Shown: piece by piece, positions 423 through 24,500 of the stretch
Numbering within the stretch: the stretch's first letter is position 1
How the letters are laid out: each line of letters starts with the position of its first letter
DNA from: Halogeometricum borinquense DSM 11551
GTDB lineage: Archaea; Halobacteriota; Halobacteria; Halobacteriales; Haloferacaceae
DNA length: 32,000 nucleotides
NCBI RefSeq assembly: GCF_000172995.2
Contig: NC_014731.1
Coordinates: 30,001-62,000, forward strand
Direction of reading: 5' to 3'
Notes under the pieces: model-generated
The model's database searches: none
Told to the model about the DNA's origin: nothing
Seen by the model: only the letters and a program-made list of their open reading frames with translations
Translations under genes and position numbers: made by a program

Positions 423-1616
423 TTAGACGTTACCGTTGATGATGTCGGCGACCCGCTGACGGTCGAACAGTTGCTCCTCTTCGGGAACATCATGAATCGA
501 TCCCGGCCACTCGCCGTACTCGTCGGGATACAGCTGTTTGGCGAGCGCCTCTGTTGAGAAGAGATCGATAATCGGCCCCATGTATTGGCCGCCAGTCCGG
601 ACGAAGTTCCCGTTTTCGACGGCACGTAGTTGACTCAGCACGTCGTGGTCTTGTGCCGTCTCGACGACCTTCTGGAGCTGGGAGTCATCGATATACGAGA
701 GGTAGCCGATCATCCCGATGTAGTCGGGGTCAACATCGAGGAGTTTCTCGATCCCAACCGGCTTGAACGGAACGTATTCTTCGCCCTGGAACGCATTGTT
801 GACACCCAGCATCCGGAAACTCCGTGTATCGTTCCGTGGCGCGTCGATGTTCGCCGCGAAGAACTTCCCAGACTCGGGGTCGAACCCGAAGTTGAACGCG
901 GCGACTGTCGGTTCGTCGCCTCCCGAGACGGGCACACGGGATTCAATGTCGGCGTAAAACGACTCCTTGAGAGTGACCCACGCCTCGTACTGAGCTTGGC
1001 GCTGGAAAATCTGTGCTGCCTTCTCGAACGCCTCGTAGAGCGTGTAGTACGGATCGCGTCCGCCGAATGGGAACCGAATCAGCGACCCGAGAATCGGGCC
1101 GACGTTCGATTCGATCTCTTCGAGGTCTTCGTCGTCCCACCCTGAGTACTTCTTCAGCATACGCGAGTCCATGAGATGGACGTCAGCGTCAACGTCGTAG
1201 AACACCTCCTTATCGTACTTCGATTCGGCCGATTCACCGAGCGTTCGGACGGCGTCGGCATCGAAATCGACGCCGGGGAGCGCATCGTAGTACTTCAGCG
1301 GGAGCCGGTCGAAGGCGGCGACGGCTTTCGGCTGGATGCCAAATCCCATCGCGATGTCCATCCACGCTCCGGGAATGCTCGCGTACGTTTCCGGGACTTC
1401 CTCGAACGTGTGGCGCCCCGCCGGCTCAATCGCCACCTCGTACGACGTCGGAGTGTCCGTCGGCGAGTTCGTCGCCGTGTCAGCCGCATCTGCCGGTGTT
1501 GGGTCACCACCATCGCTGGTGCATCCTGCGAGTAGACCCCCGCCGAGGATGGTACTGCCGCCCTGTATCATCTCTCTCCGCGTCGGAATCTCGTGAACGT
1601 CAGTCTCTGCTGCCAT
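423..1616 (-). CDS. ABC transporter substrate-binding lipoprotein, iron-siderophore/cobalamin (FhuD/FepB-like periplasmic binding protein) type
   Basis: 397-aa ORF with an ATG start. The N-terminus has a Tat motif (PTRREMI) and a lipobox (LLAGC), followed by an acidic Thr/Asp-rich linker. The body resembles class III periplasmic binding proteins. No permease or ATPase gene lies downstream within the window. Confidence 0.72.
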   Translation of the reverse strand: MAAETDVHEIPTRREMIQGGSTILGGGLLAGCTSDGGDPTPADAADTATNSPTDTPTSYEVAIEPAGRHTFEEVPETYASIPGAWMDIAMGFGIQPKAVAAFDRLPLKYYDALPGVDFDADAVRTLGESAESKYDKEVFYDVDADVHLMDSRMLKKYSGWDDEDLEEIESNVGPILGSLIRFPFGGRDPYYTLYEAFEKAAQIFQRQAQYEAWVTLKESFYADIESRVPVSGGDEPTVAAFNFGFDPESGKFFAANIDAPRNDTRSFRMLGVNNAFQGEEYVPFKPVGIEKLLDVDPDYIGMIGYLSYIDDSQLQKVVETAQDHDVLSQLRAVENGNFVRTGGQYMGPIIDLFSTEALAKQLYPDEYGEWPGSIHDVPEEEQLFDRQRVADIINGNV

Positions 1617-1618
1617 GT

Positions 1619-1636
1619 TTTTAGGCTAGCCTAAAA
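1619..1636. promoter_or_regulatory. Perfect 18-bp palindrome TTTTAGGCTAGCCTAAAA, a putative metal-dependent (DtxR/Idr-like) repressor operator
   Basis: It lies 2 nt upstream of the ATG at 1616 and 1 nt downstream of a TATA-like TTATATA (1638-1644, - strand). The 16-bp core recurs identically at 2946-2961. Confidence 0.6.
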
Positions 1637-1763
1637 GTATATAACTATTTCTACCGGTCGATCAGACGACTACGAAAACGGGTCTCGACTACCCTGGCCT
1701 GTCCGGTCCAGCGGTGGGACTTGTGTCACTGCCACGGTGTCGTCCTCTTGATTCAATCGGGCA

Positions 1764-2699
1764 TCAGTCGGAGATGTTCCTCCCGTCACTCCCCGTCGTC
1801 TCCGCTTGTTCGGCCACGTATTCCTGTAACCGATCGTCGTCGATGACCTCAAGGAGGAGTTCCTCGTCGAGATGAGTAGCGAGCCGTCGGTGTGCACGTT
1901 CTCGACGATTGTCAATCTCTGATCGGTCGAGGTGAGTGGATTTGACGAACTCGATTTCGCGCTGGCGAATCCGTTGGAGTCGCTCCTGCTCGATGTCGTG
2001 GTCGTCAGCTACTCTGTGATCCGCGAATCGCCGGTGCCAGGTTTCTTCGTCGTCCCAGTCGTAATCGAGAGCCGCACGGCGCCGAAGCCAGTCGTAGTGG
2101 GGGGCGGCTTCTTCCCAGTACCCCTCTTCGCAGCGGACATCGGCCAGTAGTTCACGGCCGACGGTCATTCCGTGCCCGGCTGCAACGAGTACCTGCTCGC
2201 CATGTCCAGCGAGGCCCCCGGCCACGTACAGTCCGTCGATAGAAGTCCGTCCGTCGGCGTCGGCGTACTCACGGTCGAACTCTTCGTGAACCTCACCGTG
2301 ATGCTCGTGGGTGTCGAACATCACCTCGTCGCTGTCAAGTCCCCTGAGATACTCGCCATCGTGGGTGGTGGCCGCCACGACTCGCGGAACGAGGACTGAT
2401 CGCTCCTCTTGGGTCCGGACACGGAAGTTACCATCCGTCCGCTCAACAGACTCGACCATGTCCGAGACAAGGTCACAGCCCGCCTCAACGGCGTGGTCGT
2501 GCATGAGTTTGTAGAATGTCTCGATGTCGATACCCGCAGGGAATCCAAGATAGTTCTCCAGAAACGCACAACGGCGAAGTGATGAGTTCCCCCGGTCGAA
2601 GATCACGACATCGAGTCCGTATCGGGCAATACAAACTCCAACGGCGCACCCCGCTGGTCCTCCACCGACGATGACGACGTCGCGGTTGGATGTCGTCAT
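1764..2699 (-). CDS. FAD-dependent oxidoreductase, thioredoxin-reductase-like but without a recognisable NAD(P)H-binding domain; charged C-terminal extension
   Basis: 311 aa. It has an N-terminal GGGPAG dinucleotide-binding motif and a C-terminal FAD motif (IDGLYVAGG). Only about 40 aa separate the two FAD-domain halves, with no second GxGxxG and no CxxC. The ATG directly follows the TAA of the upstream small ORF. Confidence 0.8.
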   Translation of the reverse strand: MTTSNRDVVIVGGGPAGCAVGVCIARYGLDVVIFDRGNSSLRRCAFLENYLGFPAGIDIETFYKLMHDHAVEAGCDLVSDMVESVERTDGNFRVRTQEERSVLVPRVVAATTHDGEYLRGLDSDEVMFDTHEHHGEVHEEFDREYADADGRTSIDGLYVAGGLAGHGEQVLVAAGHGMTVGRELLADVRCEEGYWEEAAPHYDWLRRRAALDYDWDDEETWHRRFADHRVADDHDIEQERLQRIRQREIEFVKSTHLDRSEIDNRRERAHRRLATHLDEELLLEVIDDDRLQEYVAEQAETTGSDGRNISD

Positions 2700-2942
2700 T
2701 TAATTGAAACGGTAAGGTACGGCGTTCTCCGACGTCGATGCAAGCTTAACGAATTGTGTTGGCGGCATCGTGAGTGTGCAGTGGTTTTTCTTGGCGGTGC
2801 TGGTTGGACCCTCATTGGAGGATTCGCCATCGGAAAGCGGGTTGGTACTGCCGACGAGCAGGTCCACCCCCACTGCCGTACTGTCGTCTTTCGCGATGTC
2901 CTGCTGTGTCGGTCCCTCGTGTACCGCGACGCTGCCTGGCAT
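2700..2942 (-). CDS. Small hypothetical protein (80 aa), first cistron of the flavoprotein operon
   Basis: The ATG lies 3 nt downstream of the palindromic operator, and the TATA box sits about 30 nt upstream. Third codon positions are mostly G/C. The stop TAA abuts the ATG of the next gene (TAAATG). No recognisable family. Confidence 0.4.
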   Translation of the reverse strand: MPGSVAVHEGPTQQDIAKDDSTAVGVDLLVGSTNPLSDGESSNEGPTSTAKKNHCTLTMPPTQFVKLASTSENAVPYRFN

Positions 2943-2945
2943 GAC

Positions 2946-2961
2946 TTTAGGCTAGCCTAAA
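2946..2961. promoter_or_regulatory. Perfect 16-bp palindrome TTTAGGCTAGCCTAAA, second copy of the putative operator
   Basis: It lies between a TATA-like TTTAATA (2966-2972, - strand) and the ATG at 2942. This is the same architecture as at 1619-1636. Confidence 0.6.
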
Positions 2962-3173: not shown

Positions 3174-4403
3174 TCATCGGATAGCTGCACCCGCACCTGA
3201 CTCGATTGCATCAACAATCCATCGGGGATGCATAGGGAGGATATCTGCTGGGAGATCATCTGACTCAAAGAAATTGATCTCCAGGACCTCGTCAGTATCG
3301 ACCTCAAGTGTCCCTGCATCGATGGTACACAGAAAGCAGTTCGTAATGAAGTGGACTGCCCTCCCAGACGGATACGAAAACACCTGCTGATGCGGGCGTG
3401 AATAGACGCCCGTTAGTTGCTCAACCGAAATCTGCAGCCCGGTTTCCTCACGCATCTCTCGAATGATCGCCTCGTCAACTGCTTCCCCCCGCTCAACAGT
3501 CCCCGTTGGGAGTGCCCAGCGTTCATTGTCAGCTCGTCTCACTAACAGTACCTCGTCCGTCTCGTTTACCACGACCGCGCCAACACCCGGACGAATTTCA
3601 TCCGGCCACGAGTACTGTGGCGATTCCCAGGCCGCCGTCACGTCGGTAAACAGCTCTGCGAGCGTCCCAATCGTCGCATCAGGCTGGCGGAAATCAGAAT
3701 CTGATGGTGCAGTGTGCTGCTCGTCTGCGACGAGCACTCCCGGGAGGCCAGCCCGATGGGCACCGAGAATATCGGTGGCCGGGTTATCTCCGACGACGAC
3801 TGCCTGCTGGTCGGCAGCTATCTCGTCAAGGGCCATCTCGAACATCAGCGGTTCGGGTTTCCCGATAACCGTTGGAACTGTCTCTACTGTGGCCTCGACC
3901 GCACGAACGATAGCACCGGCACCCGGAGCAGGACCATCGGGTGTCGAGAATGCACCGTCTGAGTTCGTTGCAACGAACTGCGCCCCTTGATCAATGTGTC
4001 TCGCTGCCCGCTGGATATCAAGATATGTTGTCTGCTCATCCGCTCCAACAACAACTACCTCGGGAGCGTCCTCTGTAATATCAATTCCAGCATCGCGGAG
4101 TTCCGAGCGCAACCCCTCGCTTCCGACGACTGCGGTGGTTGAGATATCCTGTTGATCGAGGAAGGCGGCTGTGGCCCATGCCGACGTGATGATTTCCGTC
4201 TCAGTCACCTCGATCCCGAAATCACGAAGGCGCGTTACGATTGTGTCCCGTGTCGGACGAGGGTCGTTAGTGAGAAACCGGATCTGCTTGTCTTGGTCGT
4301 AGAGTCGATTGACAGTGGTAACGGCATTCGAGAGTACCTCGTCACCGGAGGAGAGCACGCCGTCAAGACCGATCAGAAACACGTCGAACTGAGTGGCAAT
4401 CAT
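3174..4403 (-). CDS. HAD-IIA (NagD-like) / Nudix hydrolase fusion protein
   Basis: 409 aa. The N-terminal half carries HAD motifs II-IV (LTND, GKPEP, GDNPATD). The C-terminal half has an exact Nudix box, GTVERGEAVDEAIIREMREETGL. HAD motif I reads GLDGV rather than DxDGV. Confidence 0.85.
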   Translation of the reverse strand: MIATQFDVFLIGLDGVLSSGDEVLSNAVTTVNRLYDQDKQIRFLTNDPRPTRDTIVTRLRDFGIEVTETEIITSAWATAAFLDQQDISTTAVVGSEGLRSELRDAGIDITEDAPEVVVVGADEQTTYLDIQRAARHIDQGAQFVATNSDGAFSTPDGPAPGAGAIVRAVEATVETVPTVIGKPEPLMFEMALDEIAADQQAVVVGDNPATDILGAHRAGLPGVLVADEQHTAPSDSDFRQPDATIGTLAELFTDVTAAWESPQYSWPDEIRPGVGAVVVNETDEVLLVRRADNERWALPTGTVERGEAVDEAIIREMREETGLQISVEQLTGVYSRPHQQVFSYPSGRAVHFITNCFLCTIDAGTLEVDTDEVLEINFFESDDLPADILPMHPRWIVDAIESGAGAAIR

Positions 4404-4429
4404 TGCAATTGTAGAGTGGTACTACTCGG

Positions 4430-5617
4430 TTATTTCTTCCGAGGTGACTCAAATACCCCCTGCTGTGTGGCTACGAGGAGAACCCTCCCACCGATAATAA
4501 ACGCAAGAGCAAGGGCTGCCAGCATTATGAGAGGACCAAACAAATCGGCAAGCACACCGCCGACTATGCGAAACACGATTGCAGCGACACCGCCAGCCAT
4601 CGAGACGACACTCAGGATAGTGGCCCGCCGGTGGTCCCGTGTCCGGTCGTTTATGACCCCACTTTGGAAGGTTTGACTGACCCGCCAGATGGCCTCCATA
4701 CTAATGAACGACGGGACAGCGAGGACAGACAGTATTGGGAGTAGCACGAAGCTGGCAGCCAACAGAATTGGGGCAATGCGGAACCAGCGATGGAGACCGA
4801 TGATACGCTCGATCCGATCAGTAACCGCGCTCGCTCCGGCAGCAACGATATTGAAACTCGCATACAGAACACCGACAGCGATTACCGGAAGCCCGACTTG
4901 GTCGCCAACGACAATTGGTTGGATGAACGTTCGAGTGACCTCAACCAGTCCAAACAGGAGAACGGTATAGCTGACGAAGCCCCTCACACCGGGTTGGGTG
5001 AACACCTGCTTCAGTTCCTGCCGCGTCGTTTCGAGCCGAGTTGATTCTGCCGGAAATGGGCGTTTCATATTTGCGGTCGATGGAAACGAGAGTACGATCG
5101 CTGCGTTTCCACCGAGGAGGAGAGCAGTAAGGAGAAACGGAGCGGTGAGTGATTGGCTGTAAACGATACTTCCAAGAATCGCGGTCGCTGCCGTGGCGGC
5201 TAGTTTAATTGCTTGCCCCCGACCGTGGACGGTCGTGTATGCGTCGACTGCACCACTGTTTGCAAGGGCACTGTAGAGCCACGCATCGGCCGTTCCTGAC
5301 CGGAAAGTTCTCCCGATTGCCCACGTGCCAAGGGCAAGCGCAAATGGAACGATGGTGTGGGACAGCGCGAGTCCCCCAACACCGACGGCTGTCACAAGGG
5401 CGCTGAGGAAGAGACTCCGACGGTACCCGAGTCGGTCTCCAATATAGCCGGTTGGAATTTCTGCGGAAACAAGGACAGCCCAGTATAACGCCCCGAGAAA
5501 GCCAATTTCGGAATAGGAGAGGCCACGGGCTTGGAGCAGTAGAACCCAGACGGGAGCGATGAGTCCTTGGGTTTCAGTGAGTGAATAGAGGTAATATCGC
5601 CAGCGGGGGTCTCGCAT
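4430..5617 (-). CDS. MFS transporter
   Basis: 395 aa, about 12 hydrophobic helices in a typical MFS arrangement. It ends 26 nt before the HAD/Nudix start, so the two are probably co-transcribed. Confidence 0.85.
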   Translation of the reverse strand: MRDPRWRYYLYSLTETQGLIAPVWVLLLQARGLSYSEIGFLGALYWAVLVSAEIPTGYIGDRLGYRRSLFLSALVTAVGVGGLALSHTIVPFALALGTWAIGRTFRSGTADAWLYSALANSGAVDAYTTVHGRGQAIKLAATAATAILGSIVYSQSLTAPFLLTALLLGGNAAIVLSFPSTANMKRPFPAESTRLETTRQELKQVFTQPGVRGFVSYTVLLFGLVEVTRTFIQPIVVGDQVGLPVIAVGVLYASFNIVAAGASAVTDRIERIIGLHRWFRIAPILLAASFVLLPILSVLAVPSFISMEAIWRVSQTFQSGVINDRTRDHRRATILSVVSMAGGVAAIVFRIVGGVLADLFGPLIMLAALALAFIIGGRVLLVATQQGVFESPRKK

Positions 5618-5863
5618 GTGTTATCACGAGGTTCGAGATAGCGTCATATGATTGTCGGGTGATTCCGTTTCAAACGAGGCCGTTCGACAATTACCCACTA
5701 CAAAGCGCTCAATAATCCTCATTTAGACGCTCACGCAAGTGGATTTGAGACCAGACTTGATCACGATTGTCACGACCTCGCTCCGTCAGCGTCACAGCAT
5801 GATCGCCAGTGCAGGCGTAACTAATTAAGAAAGCAGATACCATCAACAGCGAAGTAGTAATCA

Positions 5864-8116
5864 ATGACGCTCGAAGACGACGCACGAGAGTATCACCGGC
5901 GTATTCCACCGGGGAAAGTAGAGATCGCAACGACGAAGCCAACAAACACCCAGCGTGACCTCTCGCTGGCGTACTCGCCGGGAGTCGCGACACCGTGTCG
6001 CGACATCGCCGAGAACCCAGAGCAGGCGTATCGTAACACCGTAAAGGGGAATCTCGTCGGTGTCGTCTCCAACGGTTCGGCCGTTCTGGGCCTCGGTGAC
6101 ATCGGCGCACAGGCTTCCAAGCCCGTGATGGAGGGGAAAGGCGTCCTGTTCAAACGCTTCGCCGACATCGACGTGTTCGACATCGAACTCGACCTCGATG
6201 ACCCCGATACGTTTACGCAGGCCGTCGCGGCGATGGAGCCGACGTTCGGGGGCATCAACCTCGAAGACATCAAAGCGCCCGAATGCTTCGAGATCGAGTC
6301 GGATCTCTCAGAACGAATGGATATTCCAGTGTTCCACGACGACCAGCACGGCACTGCCATCATCTCCGGGGCCGCACTACAGAACGCCGCCGACATTGTC
6401 GGGAAGAATCTCTCAGATCTGCACGTCACTTTCGCGGGTGCGGGCGCGGCAGCGACAGCGACTGCCCGGTTCTACGTCTCGCTCGGCATCCCTCGGGAGA
6501 ACATCACGATGTGCGATATCGACGGGATCCTCTCGGAGGCTCGGGCCGAAGCTGGTGACCTTAACGAGTTCACCGAGCCGTTCGCCTGCGGGGAGGACGA
6601 CGGCGAACTCGAAGACGCGATGGAAGGCGCGGACGTGTTCGTCGGCCTCTCAGTCGGCGGAATCGTTTCCCAAGAGATGGTACGGACGATGGCCGACGAT
6701 CCGATCATCTTCGCGATGGCGAACCCCGACCCCGAGATCACCTACGAGGACGCCAAGGACGCGCGCGACGACACGGTCATCATGGCAACGGGCCGGTCGG
6801 ATTACCCGAACCAAGTGAACAACGTCCTCGGCTTTCCGTTCATCTTCCGCGGAGCGCTCGACGTTCGCGCAACCGAAATCAACGAGGAGATGAAGCTCGC
6901 TGCTGCGGATGCACTCGCAGACCTCGCCCGTGAGGACGTTCCAGATGCCGTCGTCAAGGCCTACGGCGACGAGCCACTCCAGTTCGGTCCCGACTATCTG
7001 ATCCCGAAACCACTGGACCAGCGCGTCCTCTACGAGGTGACACCCGCCGTCGCGCGGGCTGCGATAGAGAGCGGCGCAGCCAGAACGGAACGCGACCTCG
7101 ACGCCTACCGCGAGGAACTCGAAGCGCGCCTCGGCAAGTCCCGCGAGATGATGCGTGTCGTGATGAACAAGGCGCAGTCGGATCCAAAACGAGTCGCACT
7201 CGCCGAGGGAGAAAACGAGAAGACGATTCGTGCAGCGAGTCAACTCGTCGAAGACGGCATCGCTGAACCCGTTCTCATCGGACGGAGAGACCACATTCTA
7301 CAGAAAACTGAAGAGCTAGGGTTGGACTTCGACCCGGTTGTTGTGAACCCACGCGAGGGGGAGTGGACCCACTACGTGGACTACCTGTACGAGCACCGGC
7401 AGCGAAAAGGTCTCACACGGACGGAAGCAAACGAACTCATCCGGCAAGACTCGAACTACTTCGCCAGCGTGATGGTGGAAATGGGCGATGCCGACGCGAT
7501 GCTCACTGGACTGACGAACCACTACCCGTCGGCGCTCCGACCACCACTGCAGGTTATCGGCACGGCCGAGAACGCGAACTACGCGGCCGGTGTCTACATG
7601 CTGACGTTCCGGAATCGAGTCGTCTTCTGTGCGGACACGACCGTCAACCTCGATCCCGACGAGGAAGTACTCGCGGAGGTGACGAAACACACCGCGGAAC
7701 TGGCCAAGCGCTTCAACGTCGAACCGCGGGCGGCGCTCCTATCGTACTCGGACTTCGGGAGCGTCGAGACCGAAGGCGTTCGCAAGCCACGCAACGCGGT
7801 GAACATCCTGCACGACGACCCCGACGTCGACTTTCCGGTCGATGGGGAGATGCAAGCGGACACTGCTCTCGTCGAGGAGATGCTGACAGAAACCTACGAG
7901 TTCGCAGAACTCGACGGTCCGGCGAACGTGCTCGTGTTCCCAAACCTCGAAGCGGGCAACATCGGCTACAAGGTGCTCCAGCGACTCGGCGGTGCCGAGG
8001 CCATCGGCCCGATGCTCGTCGGCATGGACAAGCCCGTCTACGTCCTCCAGCGCGGTGACGAGGTCAAAGACATTGTCAACCTGGCGAGCGTCGCCGTCGT
8101 GGACGCACAAGAATGA
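5864..8116 (+). CDS. maeB: NADP-dependent malic enzyme (malic enzyme domain fused to a phosphate-acetyltransferase-like domain)
   Basis: 750 aa. The N-terminal half is a malic enzyme with its NAD(P)-binding region (FAGAGAA). The C-terminal roughly 320 aa is PTA-like. This is the classical MaeB architecture. Confidence 0.93.
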
Positions 8117-17480: not shown

Positions 17481-17728
17481 TTCGTTCTAAATAGAGATGA
17501 TTTGACCAGTCGTTCACTTGATCTCAGAGTCCACTAAATAAGCGATCCAGTCTGCTATGACTTTTGACTCACCACGTCGTGATAACGGAATCTAATCACG
17601 CTCTTGAGCCTGTGTTTCTTCTTGTTGCTGCTTGAACACAACTCCGGAGAATGATTTTGATGCGTGCCTTCTGTTCGGCTCTGTTGAAATCCTCAGGAAG
17701 TTACATGTTCGCCGTGTAATTCGATGAG

Positions 17729-17812
17729 ATGAAGGCCCTCCCGAAGTCGCAGATTCTCCGGTTTACTGAGAAGGCGATCCATCTGGCACGGCGAGCTGTC
17801 GCTCGATACTGA
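17729..17812 (+). mobile_element. N-terminal 27-codon remnant of a haloarchaeal IS transposase (IS5-family-like)
   Basis: MKALPKSQILRFTEKAIHLARRAVARY* matches the N-terminus of a haloarchaeal transposase family that continues RYSSKFSKRRYT..., as I remember it. Here the ORF terminates and the homology ends. Confidence 0.4.
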
Positions 17813-17853
17813 GACTATCCAAGGGGTGGTGCGAAAGATCACTTCTCAGTATT

Positions 17854-18030
17854 TTACCTAAGATTGAAAAGAACGAACCCAGAAGCGAGACCGCCTGCAA
17901 CAGCCGGAATAATCGATTCAAGTAGACCTCCGTCAAAGAGAACTAATTCGAAAACACTCGATATTACCACCCAAACCACCACATTAGTCGTTATGAATAC
18001 CCATTGGTCTTCTAAGTCAAATGAGGCCAT
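17854..18030 (-). CDS. Possible small two-helix membrane protein (58 aa)
   Basis: This ORF is below the track cutoff and was found by hand: MASFDLEDQWVFITTNVVVWVVISSVFELVLFDGGLLESIIPAVAGGLASGFVLFNLR. It has two hydrophobic helices, is AT-rich, and has no clear promoter. Confidence 0.25.
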   Translation of the reverse strand: MASFDLEDQWVFITTNVVVWVVISSVFELVLFDGGLLESIIPAVAGGLASGFVLFNLR

Positions 18031-18639
18031 ATCTGCGAATTATGTTCCAGTCTCTAATCCGTACTGGTGTCTTCGCACTCTTCACCAACCGGCTGTTTCA
18101 GTCGATAATGTGTTTGAAGAATAGGATTTCAACAAAGCTAAAAATCCATAATTCAAGAGCACTGAACGTAATGAGAGCTATTCCCAGATTAGTCAGAGGA
18201 CGCTATGTGAAGTACATCCCTTTGAAAAGACAGATAATTTACAATTACGATGGTAATATTGTCACGCTGTAAATTTCCAATTCGCCGAAATGATTCCGGT
18301 CTAACTGGAATCAGTGAACGGATTAGACTCGCCTTTGGTGATAAAAAACAACAGTGTGTTTCCCATCGTGTTCAGGTCTTCGTGTCCGATAGGATATACA
18401 AGATGAAAACCATCCTCCACAGTCTGGGACCAACTGTGATCTAGTAGGCGACTCTACGCTTCGCCCCTCTTCGGTAACCTATCTCAGTTATCCCCTATCA
18501 TATCATATGAATTTCTATCCTGTTGGAAAGTTGCCCCAATAGCCCGAATCAAGGCCGAGAATATTATTTCACTACTTGACAATCAGAAAACATAAATATT
18601 TTTATGTAATCAGACACACATAACAGATGGTGTTTCACA

Positions 18640-20388: not shown

Positions 20389-21189
20389 TCAGTCTTCCCA
20401 GCGGGATAGCATGACTAGCGCGGCCACGAGTGCAACGAGCGCTGTGCCAACGGTGAATCCGGGAACTTCCGTACTGGCGGTACCAGCATCGGCTGCTTCG
20501 TTGACTTTGTTAGTCGTTGGAGCGCCTACAGCTGTCTCCTCGCTCGCGTCGTCGGTCCGAGTCGGTTCGACGCCCATCTCCGTCATGGTGTTCTCGTCGG
20601 GGCCGGTTTCGCTCGCCGTCGCTGTCACCGCGCCGGCGTTGTCGCTTTCGTCCGCACCACCGGCGGCGTCGATCACGTCGAGTGTCCCCGGGTCAGTTCT
20701 CGGATTGACACTGGATCCGTTATTGTCGTCGAGTCGGTCGATGGTGACACGCAGGCTCGTTTCGCCAGCCTGCTGGCCACGGAGCGTAACCGACCCGAGC
20801 GTCACGTTTGACGCGCCGGGTTCGACGGTCTTGTTCAGGTCGGCCGCCTTCAGTCGGACGGCCGTACCGTCGGCAATACCCTCGACCTCGCCGAGACCGA
20901 ATTCGTCGGCCACCTCCGCATCGACGACTGTCGCGGCGTCGCCGTTCGTCATCTCGACTGTGAGGGCAAATCCGGCGACGCCGTCGGGAGCTTCGGTCAG
21001 CGTGAGGTCAACCGTCGTCTCCTCACCTTCCTCGACACTCGTCCCACCAGCGACGACCGTCGGATCGCTGGCAGCCAGCGCCGGGGCAGCCAATCCCGTG
21101 ACGACGACCGAGAGTGCGAGTCCGGCCGCGAGCCAGCGCGTTGCCGTTCGCACCGTCCCGACATCAGGCATCGTCGCGTCAGATCTCAT
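20389..21189 (-). CDS. Cell-surface cohesin-domain protein with a PGF-CTERM (archaeosortase A) anchor
   Basis: It has a signal-like N-terminus (RWLAAGLALSVVVTGLAAPALAA). Its cohesin-like domain (LTLTEAPDGVAGFALTVEM...) is paralogous to the one in the upstream gene. A Thr/Asp/Glu-rich linker precedes the C-terminal PGFTVGTALVALVAALVMLSRWED. The start is ambiguous: ATG at 21189 (overlaps the upstream stop), ATG at 21171, or GTG at 21273. Confidence 0.8.
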   Translation of the reverse strand: MRSDATMPDVGTVRTATRWLAAGLALSVVVTGLAAPALAASDPTVVAGGTSVEEGEETTVDLTLTEAPDGVAGFALTVEMTNGDAATVVDAEVADEFGLGEVEGIADGTAVRLKAADLNKTVEPGASNVTLGSVTLRGQQAGETSLRVTIDRLDDNNGSSVNPRTDPGTLDVIDAAGGADESDNAGAVTATASETGPDENTMTEMGVEPTRTDDASEETAVGAPTTNKVNEAADAGTASTEVPGFTVGTALVALVAALVMLSRWED

Positions 21190-22906
21190 CGAACAGCGTG
21201 TTGATGTCGTCGAAGTCAACGCGACCGTTGCCGTTGAAGTCGAACGAGTCGGCGTTGGACTGAACGGCGTCACTGTCTCGGTGTTCGAAGAACACCACTA
21301 CATCTTCGAAGTCGGCCTCGCCGTTGCCGTTCATATCCTCGTACAGTCCGTCTCCGTCGGGGTCGGTCGGAAGGTCGTTGTCGCCGATACGGGCGATGTC
21401 GGCGACGGTCACGACGCCGGTGTCGGTCGCGGCGTCGATTGCCGAGCCGTCGGCATCGGAGTCGAGAGCATTCACGGAGAGTGTGACGCCGGTCTCACCC
21501 GCGCTCTGGAGACCGACAGACAGGGTCGCAAGCGATACGTTGGCAGCCCCGCCCTCGACCGCGTCTTCGATGTCCGAGGCTGCCAGCGTCACCGACGAGT
21601 CATCATCAGCAACGGACACCTCAGTCACCCCGCTCGGGAACGCATCTGCCACGGTCGCACTCTCGATAGATGCCACGGCCGCATCGTCAACTGAGACAGT
21701 TACGTCGAAACCGGCGAGACCGTCAGGTGCATCGGATAGTGACAGTTCCGCCGGAACAGTACCGCCGACACCACCGTTCTCAGGGAACGACACCGAGAGG
21801 GTCGGTGATTCGCCGTCGTCACCATCGGAGCCCCCAGAGCCGTCCGTGTTCGGTTCGTAGCTGTCGAACAGACTGAACGCGTCGTCGAAGTTCGTCGTGA
21901 CCGGAATCGACGCGTTCCCGTTCACGTTCGAACTGCCGTCAGTGACCGCGCTTCCGAGTCGAAGGTCGGTGCCGAGTTCGGACGCGAGGCGCTCTAGGTT
22001 TGCCGTCGTGCTGCCCGGCGCGGCGGCGCTCCCGAGTAACACGACTGCACCGTCGTTGGCAGCGAAGTCCGAAAGCGCCGCCACCTCGTCGGCAGTGAAT
22101 TCCGAGACGGGCGTGGTGACGATGATCGCCCGCGCGTCGTCGAGACGCTCGCTGTACGCGGTGTTGACCTGTTCGAGGGTGAGGCCGACACCTTCGAGAT
22201 AGCGCTGGTAGTACGCTGCGTCCTCGCTGGACAGTGCGTAGCCAGCGCCGAATTGGCCGTGTCCGCCGTCGATGAGTACATCTCCGTTCTTATCGGAGAG
22301 AGAGTCGATCAGGTTCGAGAGGAACGTGAAGTTACCGTAACCGCTCGTGTCGGCAGCGAATCCTTCGTCGGCCTCGTAGCTCTCATCGATAAACGGCGAG
22401 CCGACGAGCGCGACGCCAGCGTCGGCATCAACCCCGACGAGCGGAGTGCCGTCCTCGCTCGCAACCGGTACGCGGCCGTCGAGCGAGGCGGAACCGGTCA
22501 CTGCGGCAGCATCGGGGAAGTACAATTCCTGAACCGCACTGTTTCGGATTTCGGCAGCCGTCGAGATATCGCTCTCGTTCCAGAGACCGCGCCCTTCGGT
22601 GCGGGCTGTATGTTCTAAGTCCCAGAACTCGTCGTGACGGGAGAGCGTGGAACCATATACCCGCGCGAGTCCGTCCTCGATCATCTTCGCGTTGTACGTC
22701 GTATCGCGGTTCCCGTCGCCAGTCGCATCGTAGTCAGCGTACGCGAGCACGCGGTCGAACGGATCCCTGACACCCTCGTTCTCATCGAAGTAGATCTCGA
22801 TGGTTTTACCGGAGAGTTCCTCCTCGGCGACCGATGTCGCCTGATTCGCCCAGTTGACGAGGTAGGGGTACTGTACGTCGCTACTGCTGTTGTCCTCACC
22901 GCCACC

Positions 22907-23575
22907 GAAGTACGGGAACGAACTGTCGAACCGCGAGGTGCTGAACTCGAAGTTGCCCTCGCTGTCCACGACCTGCGCGTCGTTGAAGCGGAACGGAGCC
23001 CCCGCCGCGTCGAGGATGTCGTTCGACGCAGTGGTATTATCATAATCCTCGTAATCGGACTTGCCCATCGCGTACACCGCTCCGCCGTCCTCGACGAACG
23101 TCGTGAGCGCGCTGAGTTCGGTGTCGGAGGGTTGCTGAGGCTGGCTGCAGACTACGAGATCGATCCCGGAGAGGTCGGCATCCAGCGAGTCAACGGTGGA
23201 CACGGTGTAGCCGGCACTCTCGGCGTTCGATACGAAGTTCGAGAAGCTGTCGAATCCGTCGAACTGCCCGTTGTCGTACCAGGCGACGGTCGCGTCGCCA
23301 CCGGTCAGGTCGTCCCACACGTTCAGGACGAAATTCGAGGCGTCCGAGTCGAGACTGGCGTCGTTGACGAGAGCGGAACTGACCGCCGCAACGTTGCCGT
23401 CGATTGCCGCGAGCGGAATAGCCGAATCGGGATAGGTAACAGCGTCGCCGTTGCCGTCCTCGTCGTTCACTGCCGAGCCTTCAGGTGCAAGCACCGCGGT
23501 CGTTTCCCCGTCGGTGTACGGTGATCCGTCAGCGGCCAAGAGGGTGGTCGCCGAGTAGAAGTTGAGCGTTGAAAC
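22907..23575 (-). repeat. Intragenic module copy 2, inserted inside the SNase domain
   Basis: VSTLNFYSATTLLAAD...GNGDAVTYPDSAIPLAAIDGNVAAVSSALVNDAS...FVLNVWDD...FRFNDAQVVD...FPYF. A third, more diverged copy lies at about 21866-22459. Confidence 0.7.
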
Positions 23576-23812
23576 CGACCGCACCCCGTCAGTCGTTTCC
23601 TCGTAGGAGAGTCCCTCCCATTCCTCGGGTCGCTCGGCATCCGAAGCACTGGCCGACTCCGGCGTGTCGATGCCGAGGACGCGGATCGACTCTTCCGTGC
23701 CGTCGTCGAACTCCACGTCGAACGTGTCACCGTCGGCAACGGAGATCACATCGACGGTGTACCGCTTGCTCGGATCGAGTTCCGACCCGGAGCTGATCCC
23801 GTCCCGGTCTTC

Positions 23813-24500
23813 GAAGTAGGGGAACTCATCGTTGAACTGGCTCGTCGTCGGGACGTAGTTGACGCCAGTGTTGTTCGTCGCGTCAGTGACCTGCGCGTCG
23901 TTGAAGCGGAAGGAGAGCCCGAGTTCCGAGGCGATCGTGTTGAGGTTGTCAGTCTCGTCGAAGTCGTCGAAGTCGGACTGGTGGTGAAGAAAGACAGCAC
24001 CACCCTCGGCGACGAACGACGAGAGCGCGCTGAGTTCGGCATCAGAGAACGCGTCAGACGGTGACGTGATGACGACTGCACTCGCCCCGCTGAGGTCGGC
24101 CGTCAAGTCACTCGTCGCCTGCACGTCGTACCCGTTCGATTCGGCGTACGTCTCGAACGCACTGAATCGAGCGAGGTTGTAGTACTGACCGTGTCCCTCG
24201 TCCCAGAGTACTGTCCCACCGTCAGCCAAGTCGTCCCAAACGTTCAGGATGAACTCCTCATTGCCGGTCGAAAAGTCTTGGTCGTCGTCGACCAGCATCG
24301 TCCCCGAAGCCGGCGACAGAGCCGTCAACACCGACTAGAGGGATCGACGTTTGGGGATAGCTGACCGCGTCGCCGTTTTCGTCGGCGTCGGTTATCGACG
24401 CCGAGTCCTCCGCCCACACTGCGATCACCGAGTTATCGGTGAGTTGCTCTTGGGAGGCGTCGAGCAACGAGTTCGTCGAGTCGAAAGCCAAGTCCGAGAT
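23813..24500 (-). repeat. Intragenic module copy 1 (about 65-aa leader segment + DUF4350-like domain)
   Basis: ISDLAFDSTNSLLDAS...ENGDAVSYPQTSIPLVGVDGSVAGFG / TMLVDDD...FILNVWDD...FRFNDAQVTD...FPYF aligns along its length with copy 2. Confidence 0.7.

Follow-up and report, generated by a model that had tools for sequence, protein, structure and literature searches.

The metal-dependent DtxR-family repressor MDR1 of Archaeoglobus fulgidus reportedly controls its own ABC transporter operon from operators that lie downstream of the TATA box, where it is said to block recruitment of RNA polymerase while TBP and TFB still bind. The mechanism that we propose below for two predicted sites in Halogeometricum borinquense is the one reported for MDR1, although the operator sequence, the organism and the regulated operon all differ. 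In sequence, these sites are the same as the TroR operator of another organism, Haloferax volcanii (Martinez Pastor et al., NAR 2023/24, PMC10783522). According to the text of that paper, the motif obtained by MEME from TroR ChIP-seq peaks is TTTAGGC-NNN-CCTAAAANAN (TTTAGGC-NNN-CCTAAAA), mutation of both boxes at Phvo_B0047 abolishes iron-dependent repression, and TroR acts as an activator of at least one gene, dpsA; the targets include fhu/phu-type binding proteins, a DUF5059-halocyanin protein and siderophore biosynthesis genes, kinds like those met at the boxes described here. The same motif is known as 'DtxR binding motif I' or the ferR signal (Leyn & Rodionov 2015, as cited in the text of PMC11349517). 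In the actinobacteria the usual operator is 19 bp long and takes two dimers, and one IdeR/DtxR dimer contacts a 14-bp consensus, TTAGGNNNNCCTAA, which comprises repeats 1 and 3 of the 19-mer and constitutes a one-dimer ('half') site (Marcos-Torres et al., NAR 2021, PMC8464063).

The window, by which we mean the whole 32-kb stretch of H. borinquense DNA analysed here, contains two copies of the 16-bp perfect palindrome TTTAGGCTAGCCTAAA, at 1620-1635 and 2946-2961. The first grows to an 18-bp palindrome, TTTTAGGCTAGCCTAAAA, at 1619-1636, whereas the second, flanked by C2945 and T2962, lacks this extension. A pattern search of the window returned no third copy of TTTAGGCTAGCCTAAA even with up to three mismatches allowed, the 14-mer core at the same tolerance found the same two window sites and no others, and there were 0 matches to the 16-mer in 100 dinucleotide-preserving shuffles. 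The initial annotation, which had described the twofold occurrence of the palindrome and its 18-bp form at the first copy, is confirmed in this by the sequence and the search, and the order of TATA-like element, palindrome and ATG that it gave for the minus strand is exactly as written at both sites. Promoter P1 reads TTATATA (1644-1638), C, the 18-mer of operator 1 (1619-1636), AC and the ATG at 1616-1614 that opens a 397-aa ORF (423-1616); promoter P2 reads TTTAATA (2972-2966), CTTA, the 16-mer of operator 2 (2946-2961), GTC and the ATG at 2942-2940 that opens an 80-aa ORF (2700-2942). The gap from 16-mer to ATG is 3 nt at both promoters (2 nt if the 18-mer of operator 1 is counted), the TATA-like element of P1 occupies -9 to -3 relative to the 16-mer, and that of P2 stands 2 nt farther from its box. 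Both are single-box promoters, the best matches to a second, upstream box at either having 7-8 mismatches, which is background; they differ in this from Phvo_B0047 with its tandem boxes, and their 3-nt spacing contrasts with the position ~100 nt upstream of start codons at which the text of the TroR paper places the motif in Hfx. volcanii (PMC10783522).

Both window sites read TTTAGGC-TAG-CCTAAA(A) and fit the TroR ChIP-seq motif. Their cores, TTAGG-CTAG-CCTAA at 1621-1634 and 2947-2960, have arms exactly 4 nt apart, and thus the same arms and spacing as the IdeR/DtxR one-dimer site; over positions 1-14 of the quoted DtxR 19-mer the 14-bp core matches at 13 of 14. That the arms are common to the corynebacterial DtxR consensus had been recognised in the initial annotation and holds, but its remark that the spacing is shorter than in DtxR sites is misleading, since 4 nt is the one-dimer spacing (PMC8464063). 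The classical 19-bp two-dimer DtxR/IdeR box, TTAGGTTAGSCTAACCTAA, was considered and rejected as a description of these sites: the best ungapped match is 14-15/19, two of the four CCTAA-type repeats are present, and the centre of symmetry falls between two bases and not on one. Unlike the actinobacterial operator, then, the window boxes are without an interleaved second repeat pair and have arms lengthened by T/A runs (TTTAGGC...GCCTAAA).

We consider it highly probable that each palindrome is a one-dimer operator of a metal-loaded DtxR-family repressor, and the H. borinquense orthologue of TroR is the most likely regulator. The box would lie just past the TATA box, at roughly -4 to -19 counted from the ATG of a leaderless transcript. 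When iron is sufficient, the bound repressor would stop RNA polymerase from joining TBP and TFB at the promoter; when iron is limiting, the apo-repressor would leave and both units, an orphan siderophore-type binding lipoprotein and an upstream ORF plus flavoprotein, would be transcribed. Repression at sufficient iron is also the logic expected from the Hfx. volcanii operator as the text of the TroR paper describes it, and the fit to the TroR motif lends support to the earlier suggestion of a DtxR-type operator, an iron regulon and a position that would block initiation. Because TroR also activates dpsA, the box alone leaves the sign of regulation unfixed. That H. borinquense should encode a TroR orthologue is drawn from the literature, in which 304 haloarchaeal genomes have 1-6 DtxR orthologues each, since the ~35 larger ORFs in the window include no DtxR-family gene (Fe_dep_repress/Fe_dep_repr_C). 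This multiplicity of paralogues, four of which share an iron response in Halobacterium salinarum, invites the suggestion that the boxes are bound by some other member of the family (Idr- or SirR-like) or respond mainly to manganese. We think this unlikely: according to the text of the TroR paper, the Hfx. volcanii motif came from TroR ChIP-seq peaks, siderophore genes are still iron-regulated in idr and sirR deletion strains, and SirR has a separate motif of its own (PMC10783522).

An exact 16-mer scan of genome contigs, with one genome per species, returned at least 120 loci, at least 69 of them in Halobacteria; the haloarchaeal share of 69/120 is a sample taken from the matches listed, and the cross-species set, being composed of perfect 16-mers only, may favour one promoter class. 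Among the haloarchaeal matches listed, an ATG opening an ORF of at least 60 aa is found 2-6 nt past the box at 54 of 69 loci, as compared with 3.5% of positions drawn at random from these loci (binomial P ~5e-65), and the commonest distance between box and ATG is 3 nt, equal to that in the window. A frequency matrix for 55 haloarchaeal promoters with the same box, again among the matches listed, has a TTATAT peak at -9 to -4 before the box, with which the position of the P1 TATA-like element agrees, and a BRE-like AAACCGAA at -21 to -14; tandem boxes ~30-36 bp apart, as at Phvo_B0047, are present in 23 of the 55. The haloarchaeal flanking proteins scanned (n=55, from the matches listed) include 23 with Peripla_BP_2, nine with DUF5059 (eight of these together with Copper-bind), four Fe(III)-type SBPs, two flavoproteins and one IucA/IucC-FhuF protein. 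These classes are those behind 'DtxR binding motif I' that are upregulated in iron-starved Hfx. volcanii cells (PMC11349517 supplement). The non-haloarchaeal 16-mers among the matches listed adjoin Fe_dep_repr_C genes (17 of 69 flanking proteins) and also flank FeoA (16) and TonB-receptor Plug (5), as well as FeoB, SIP, Nramp and cation efflux genes. Nramp and cation-efflux genes are typical manganese targets and speak for a manganese response, but the haloarchaeal targets among the matches listed are overwhelmingly iron and siderophore genes.

Conservation upstream of orthologues, a check proposed in the initial annotation, supports the operator reading: both boxes persist at the orthologous promoters in four other genomes (loci L121-L125), at the same positions and with 0-2 mismatches. 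The arms are invariant and stay constant while the flanks of the boxes diverge between orthologues, and the centre varies (TA, CA, TG, GG, TT); operator 1 reads TTTAGGC-CA/TG/..-GCCTAAA before the orthologues. A perfect palindrome with CTAG at its centre might instead act as nucleic acid, whether as a 5'-leader RNA hairpin, a cruciform, or a restriction or recombination site. A hairpin, however, would require compensatory changes in the arms, and the orthologues, which vary in the centre, have none; the box most likely stays outside the transcript, because the TATA element lies directly 5' of it; and neither an Rfam family match nor a tRNA was found. The cross-phylum association of the palindrome with DtxR-family genes would also be left unexplained. 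We therefore regard such a role as extremely improbable and prefer the protein operator.

The gene behind operator 1 (423-1616, minus strand) encodes a 397-aa Tat-lipoprotein, a substrate-binding protein of the iron-siderophore/B12 type with a Peripla_BP_2 match (Pfam PF01497; E 7.5e-11, 42.3 bits vs cutoff 27.5), and its translation has a twin-arginine motif, PTRREM, and a lipobox, LLAGC, at the N-terminus. It is 98% identical to an H. borinquense protein, and its homologues are named iron complex or ferrichrome binding protein; several sources thus agree with the initial annotation that one target is an iron-siderophore-type binding protein, and operator 1 separates the ATG of this gene from the TATA-like element. 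The protein is an 'orphan', in that no permease or ATPase gene is found downstream in relatives.

Beside it, in conserved synteny, is the gene for a 311-aa flavoprotein (1764-2699, minus strand) with a thioredoxin-reductase-type FAD domain. Pfam Pyr_redox_2 covers residues 7-111 only, and the C-terminus bears a helical extension of ~110 aa. The best PDB sequence match is 2cvj, a 180-aa protein, over residues 7-191, and 2cvj is likewise the best fold match of the AlphaFold model (pLDDT 81.7; TM 0.81 on target). Identification as a thioredoxin reductase was rejected, as only the FAD domain aligns, the NAD(P)H-binding domain is absent, and the family alignment has one invariant cysteine, Cys44, and no CxxC. 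The text of the TroR paper makes no mention of the flavoprotein as a TroR target (PMC10783522). Operator 2 is nevertheless kept before the orthologous units of upstream ORF and flavoprotein at L121, L122 and L123, a box stands directly before the flavoprotein gene in Hfx. marisrubri (L125) and Halarchaeum (L103), and in Halomicrobium (L124) a box precedes an operon that contains the flavoprotein. The proposal that the flavoprotein and the small ORF before it belong to an iron regulon is strengthened for the flavoprotein, which is a recurrent box target in the last three of these genomes; the small ORF is no conserved protein.

This 80-codon ORF (2700-2942, minus strand) ends in a TAA that directly abuts the ATG of the flavoprotein ORF, and in L122 and L123 the corresponding position is taken by ORFs of 24 and 25 codons, their TAA likewise adjoining the ATG. 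Its product aligns from Met1 with the N-termini of binding proteins (E 8e-6 to 3e-7), with the twin-arginine RR changed to QQ and the lipobox Cys to Ser; with the binding protein encoded before the flavoprotein gene of Halomicrobium (L124) it gave no significant match. A conserved small protein was rejected: homologues occur in H. borinquense only, dN/dS is 2.7, compared with 0.20 for the flavoprotein, and the nucleotide identity of the ORF, 92%, is equal to that of the promoter. Judged from these comparisons, it is what is left of the 5' end of a decayed Peripla_BP_2 gene, kept open as an upstream ORF, and it is probably translated just to bring ribosomes to the flavoprotein start.

The repeat common to P1 and P2 (26 nt, 88% identity) takes in the start codon and, since the 80-aa ORF is also homologous to the binding-protein N-terminus, the two window promoters are paralogous. 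As promoter 2 is derived from the promoter of a binding-protein gene, the contention that chance recurrence of the 16-mer is negligible overstates the independence of the copies. It could be supposed from the remnant and from the reach of the repeat that the identity of the two copies reflects nothing but shared ancestry, the duplicated promoter having left at the flavoprotein unit a palindrome that has no present role. This is very improbable in our view: the box is identical at 16/16 positions, against 33% identity over the 60 nt upstream and neutral evolution of the remnant, variation is confined to the central dinucleotide, and five further genomes have a box before the flavoprotein unit, two of them (L125 and L103) without any remnant ORF. 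An operator in current use at both units remains the preferred reading.

The unit occurs in varied settings. A 3.6-kb IS-type transposon, which has inverted ends of 17 bp and a target duplication of 8 bp, carries it in Haloarcula sp. CGMCC 1.2071; Haloferax larsenii has it on a plasmid, and its neighbourhoods differ between two H. borinquense strains. No transposon ends flank the unit in the window, where the two copies of that inverted repeat, the only ones present, enclose another element, of 463 bp, at 17.7-18.1 kb. We suggest, quite tentatively, that the series of TroR box, remnant upstream ORF, flavoprotein, TroR box and orphan binding lipoprotein may be a self-contained mobile iron cassette, in which the flavoprotein would be a haloarchaeal ferric-siderophore reductase of a new type. 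If so, the flavoprotein would free iron from whatever its partner binding protein imports, and the cassette would join the iron regulon of its recipient on arrival, since all haloarchaea share the operator.

As the motif, the regulator and the main target classes have already been published, the finding is a confirmation and not a discovery. Its additions are modest, and consist of the fixed geometry of TATA element, box, 3 nt and ATG, the recognition of the box as a probable one-dimer DtxR site, the coupling of remnant upstream ORFs to enzyme genes, and evidence for intergeneric movement of an iron cassette that carries the box. Two transcription units of H. borinquense can now be annotated as predicted iron-repressed members of a TroR/DtxR regulon, and a conserved flavoprotein is added to the candidate genes for iron acquisition in the haloarchaea.

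Two copies of the perfect palindrome TTTAGGCTAGCCTAAA, both read on the - strand, are present in the window, the first (1620-1635) extending to an 18-bp palindrome at 1619-1636 and the second (2946-2961) having no extension beyond 16 bp. Both positions and the longer first copy had been given in the initial annotation and were confirmed by the sequence and by pattern searching, which revealed no third copy in the window with up to three mismatches allowed and located the 14-bp core at the same two positions only; TTTAGGCTAGCCTAAA was matched 0 times across 100 shuffles. The promoter contexts are likewise exactly as described there, with the box between a TATA-like element and the ATG on the - strand: TTATATA-C-(18-mer)-AC-ATG at the promoter of a 397-aa binding protein (P1) and TTTAATA-CTTA-(16-mer)-GTC-ATG at that of an 80-aa upstream ORF and a 311-aa flavoprotein (P2). 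The gap between 16-mer and ATG is 3 nt in both, and both are of a single-box type, in contrast to the tandem boxes of some other haloarchaeal promoters. The gene directly upstream of P2 (3174-4403, - strand) encodes a 409-aa protein in which a HAD-type phosphatase (Hydrolase_6 / Hydrolase_like) is fused to a NUDIX domain, and the window search found no box of its own.

A study of TroR, a DtxR-family iron-sensing repressor of Haloferax (Hfx.) volcanii, gives a motif TTTAGGC-NNN-CCTAAAANAN that is derived from TroR ChIP-seq peaks and present in 32/32 intergenic peaks, and reports that iron-dependent repression of a siderophore promoter is abolished when both of its boxes are mutated and that repression is lost in a troR deletion strain (PMC10783522). 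The window 16-mer (TTTAGGC-TAG-CCTAAA) is an exact fit to this motif. In iron-starved Hfx. volcanii, fhu/phu binding proteins and a permease are increased, each encoded behind a 'DtxR binding motif I', as is the DUF5059/halocyanin protein HVO_1228 with the same motif upstream (PMC11349517); that paper credits the comparative-genomic regulon to Leyn & Rodionov (2015), and the particular window sites may already be catalogued there or in the supplement to the TroR study. Structural work on IdeR places one dimer on repeats 1 and 3 within its 19-bp operator, and the minimal target has been redefined as TTAGGNNNNCCTAA (PMC8464063), with which the window core TTAGG-CTAG-CCTAA is in exact agreement. 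The arm spacing, initially thought shorter than that of DtxR sites, is therefore that of a one-dimer site. The core also matches the 19-mer DtxR operator at 13/14 of positions 1-14, whereas over its whole length the 19-mer is matched at only 14-15/19, the window site lacking two of the four repeats, and a classical two-dimer 19-bp DtxR box was rejected on these grounds.

An exact-match scan for the 16-mer, using one genome from each of 185,579 species, returned at least 120 loci. Halobacteria, a class to which far fewer than 1% of the species in a collection of this kind belong, account for 69/120 of the matches listed. At 54 of these 69 haloarchaeal loci an ATG that opens an ORF of 60 aa or more lies 2-6 nt past the box on one side, a test at which random positions in the same loci succeed in 3.5% of cases (binomial P about 5e-65), and the modal distance from box to ATG across the haloarchaeal loci is 3 nt, the same as in the window. 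Counted from the box, a frequency matrix of 55 such promoters has TTATAT at -9..-4 and, at -21..-14, a BRE-like AAACCGAA; 23/55 possess another nearly complete box ending 18-21 nt upstream, and in these two boxes flank the BRE/TATA. Pfam scanning of the 55 haloarchaeal proteins starting just behind an exact box identified Peripla_BP_2 in 23, DUF5059 in nine (eight with a cupredoxin domain too), Fe(III)-type binding proteins in four, Pyr_redox_2 flavoproteins in two and IucA/IucC-FhuF in one. Among the 51 non-haloarchaeal loci in the matches listed, flanking proteins carry a DtxR-family metal-binding domain (17) or FeoA (16), and others are TonB-receptor plug, FeoB, siderophore-interacting (Mycobacterium), Nramp and cation-efflux proteins. 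Judged from these families of flanking genes, the 16-mer is a DtxR-family operator core in wide use, which in bacteria is often autoregulatory and in haloarchaea marks iron-uptake promoters, and the same core appears to serve autoregulation far outside the archaea. The identical 16-mer precedes siderophore-interacting-protein genes in Mycobacterium spp. (L027, L034) and DtxR-FeoA fusion regulator genes in several bacterial phyla, with loci in Bacteroidota (L002, L026, L114) and Acidobacteriota (L015, L017, L119), the fusion genes often being divergent from TonB-receptor genes.

The flavoprotein gene adjoins siderophore-type binding-protein genes in many haloarchaeal genera. Flavoprotein and binding protein are adjacent in another strain of Halogeometricum (H.) borinquense (L121), on a plasmid of Haloferax larsenii (L122), and in Haloarcula sp. 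CGMCC 1.2071 (L123), Halomicrobium zhouii (L124) and Haloferax marisrubri (L125), and all of these promoters have the box at the equivalent place with 0-2 mismatches, the arms being constant and the central dinucleotide TA, CA, TG, GG or TT. In L125, as in Halarchaeum (L103), only 3-4 nt separate the box from the flavoprotein's own ATG, while in L124 the flavoprotein is gene 2 of a box-controlled binding-protein operon. Boxes at orthologous flavoprotein promoters argue that the flavoprotein is a robust member of the regulon, to which it had been assigned by association. At the Halomicrobium zhouii locus (L124:2745-8891) the flavoprotein gene is embedded in a series of four to five consecutive Peripla_BP_2 paralogues, with one box before the first gene and tandem boxes at 4902 and 4937 before the next binding-protein gene. 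With the spacing corrected, the interpretation as DtxR-family boxes of an iron regulon is thus supported by the TroR motif, the targets in other genomes and the conserved boxes; by sequence fit, promoter context and conservation the window boxes are predicted members of the known TroR/DtxR operator class.

The 397-aa protein (423..1616, - strand) is a Peripla_BP_2 protein with a twin-arginine signal and lipobox (PTRREM...LLAGC); it is 98% identical to an H. borinquense protein, and homologues bear the name of iron-complex or ferrichrome binding protein. The flavoprotein (1764..2699, - strand; 100% identical to an H. borinquense protein) matches Pyr_redox_2 over its first ~110 residues only. 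These two identities assign the window to H. borinquense. Over residues 7-191 its best solved relative is TTHA0370 of T. thermophilus (2cvj), a 180-aa 'thioredoxin reductase related protein' that is also the best fold for the AlphaFold model (pLDDT 81.7; TM 0.81 on target). Of the thioredoxin-reductase fold the family has the FAD domain alone, as does TTHA0370, and adds a predicted C-terminal helical extension of ~110 aa that has no counterpart. Domain comparison and the family alignment revealed neither an NADPH domain nor a CxxC, C44 being the one cysteine invariant in the family. We regard the flavoprotein as a candidate iron-release enzyme.

The 80-aa upstream ORF (2700..2942, - strand), whose TAA directly abuts the flavoprotein ATG, has homologues in H. 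borinquense only. Two strains differ by 17 non-synonymous and 2 synonymous changes (dN/dS 2.7, against 0.20 for the neighbouring flavoprotein), concentrated at codon position 2, and its nucleotide identity between strains (92%) is that of the non-coding promoter. Over some 50 residues, beginning at Met1, it can be aligned with the signal-peptide region of the binding-protein family (E 8e-6 in one comparison and down to 3e-7 in another), the twin arginines being replaced by QQ and the lipobox cysteine by serine. The restricted homologues, the dN/dS and this alignment together identify the ORF as what is left, in decayed form, of the 5' end of a binding-protein gene. Promoter 2 was accordingly inherited from such a gene, a descent that explains why the P1/P2 repeat runs across the start codon. 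The counterpart in L122 and L123 has just 24-25 codons, and in 4/4 genomes (window, L121-L123) the upstream ORF starts 3-4 nt past the box with its TAA immediately before the flavoprotein ATG. We infer that the frame is kept open because a leaderless mRNA must begin translation at its own 5' AUG, the enzyme gene then being reached by termination-reinitiation, a coupling established in Hfx. volcanii. This short-ORF and stop-start arrangement recurs at box-controlled enzyme genes: ORFs of 10-38 codons lie 3-7 nt past an exact box, with stops overlapping or abutting the main start, and precede dat in Hfx. elongans (L099; UGAUG overlap), a dat-like gene in a Haladaptatus MAG (L041; AUGA overlap), iucA in Hfx. 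larsenii (L046; overlap) and a 272-aa gene in Halarchaeum spp. (L088/L106; UAG abutting AUG).

The distance of 2-6 nt from box to ATG in the sampled perfect 16-mers differs from the ~100 nt upstream of start codons stated in the abstract for Hfx. volcanii (PMC10783522). The two may be partly reconciled by an upstream ORF filling the gap where the enzyme gene is farther, the sample consisting of perfect copies only. In haloarchaea the TATA box has its centre about 25-27 nt ahead of the start, and leaderless transcripts are in the majority; given this, transcription from P1 and P2 would start at, or a few nucleotides from, the ATG, and the box would span about -4 to -19. A repressor there would leave TATA/BRE accessible and block polymerase recruitment, as the archaeal DtxR homologue MDR1 reportedly does. 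An iron-bound dimer of TroR, the likely regulator, on each box would silence both units, and iron limitation would release them.

No DtxR-family gene was found among the remaining larger ORFs of the window. An internal repeat (22970-23129 and 23888-24047), whose copies are 918 nt apart and share 24 identical nt followed by 54 nt at 80%, falls within a 1050-aa ORF (21179..24331, - strand) with ABC_transp_aux/DUF4350 and staphylococcal-nuclease domains, and is therefore probably an internal domain duplication.

In L123 (positions 3727-7323; JAYMGY010000012.1) the whole module, comprising box, 25-codon upstream ORF, flavoprotein, box and binding protein, lies together with a split DDE_Tnp_1 transposase between 17-bp terminal inverted repeats GGCTCTGTTGAAATCCT, with the same 8 bp TCTCAAAC on both outer sides. 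The repeats and the flanking TCTCAAAC indicate a 3.6-kb IS-type transposon with the iron module as cargo. A 463-bp stretch of the window without a large ORF (17677-18139) is bounded by GGCTCTGTTGAAATCCT / AGCTTTGTTGAAATCCT with 0 and 2 mismatches, 0.07 matches to this inverted repeat being expected by chance; no target duplication is visible at 17677-18139, and the stretch resembles a non-autonomous, miniature derivative of the L123 IS. It is conceivable, if less likely than not, that box, flavoprotein, box and binding protein together form a mobile iron cassette, pre-wired into the iron regulon of its host and bearing a new kind of siderophore reductase.
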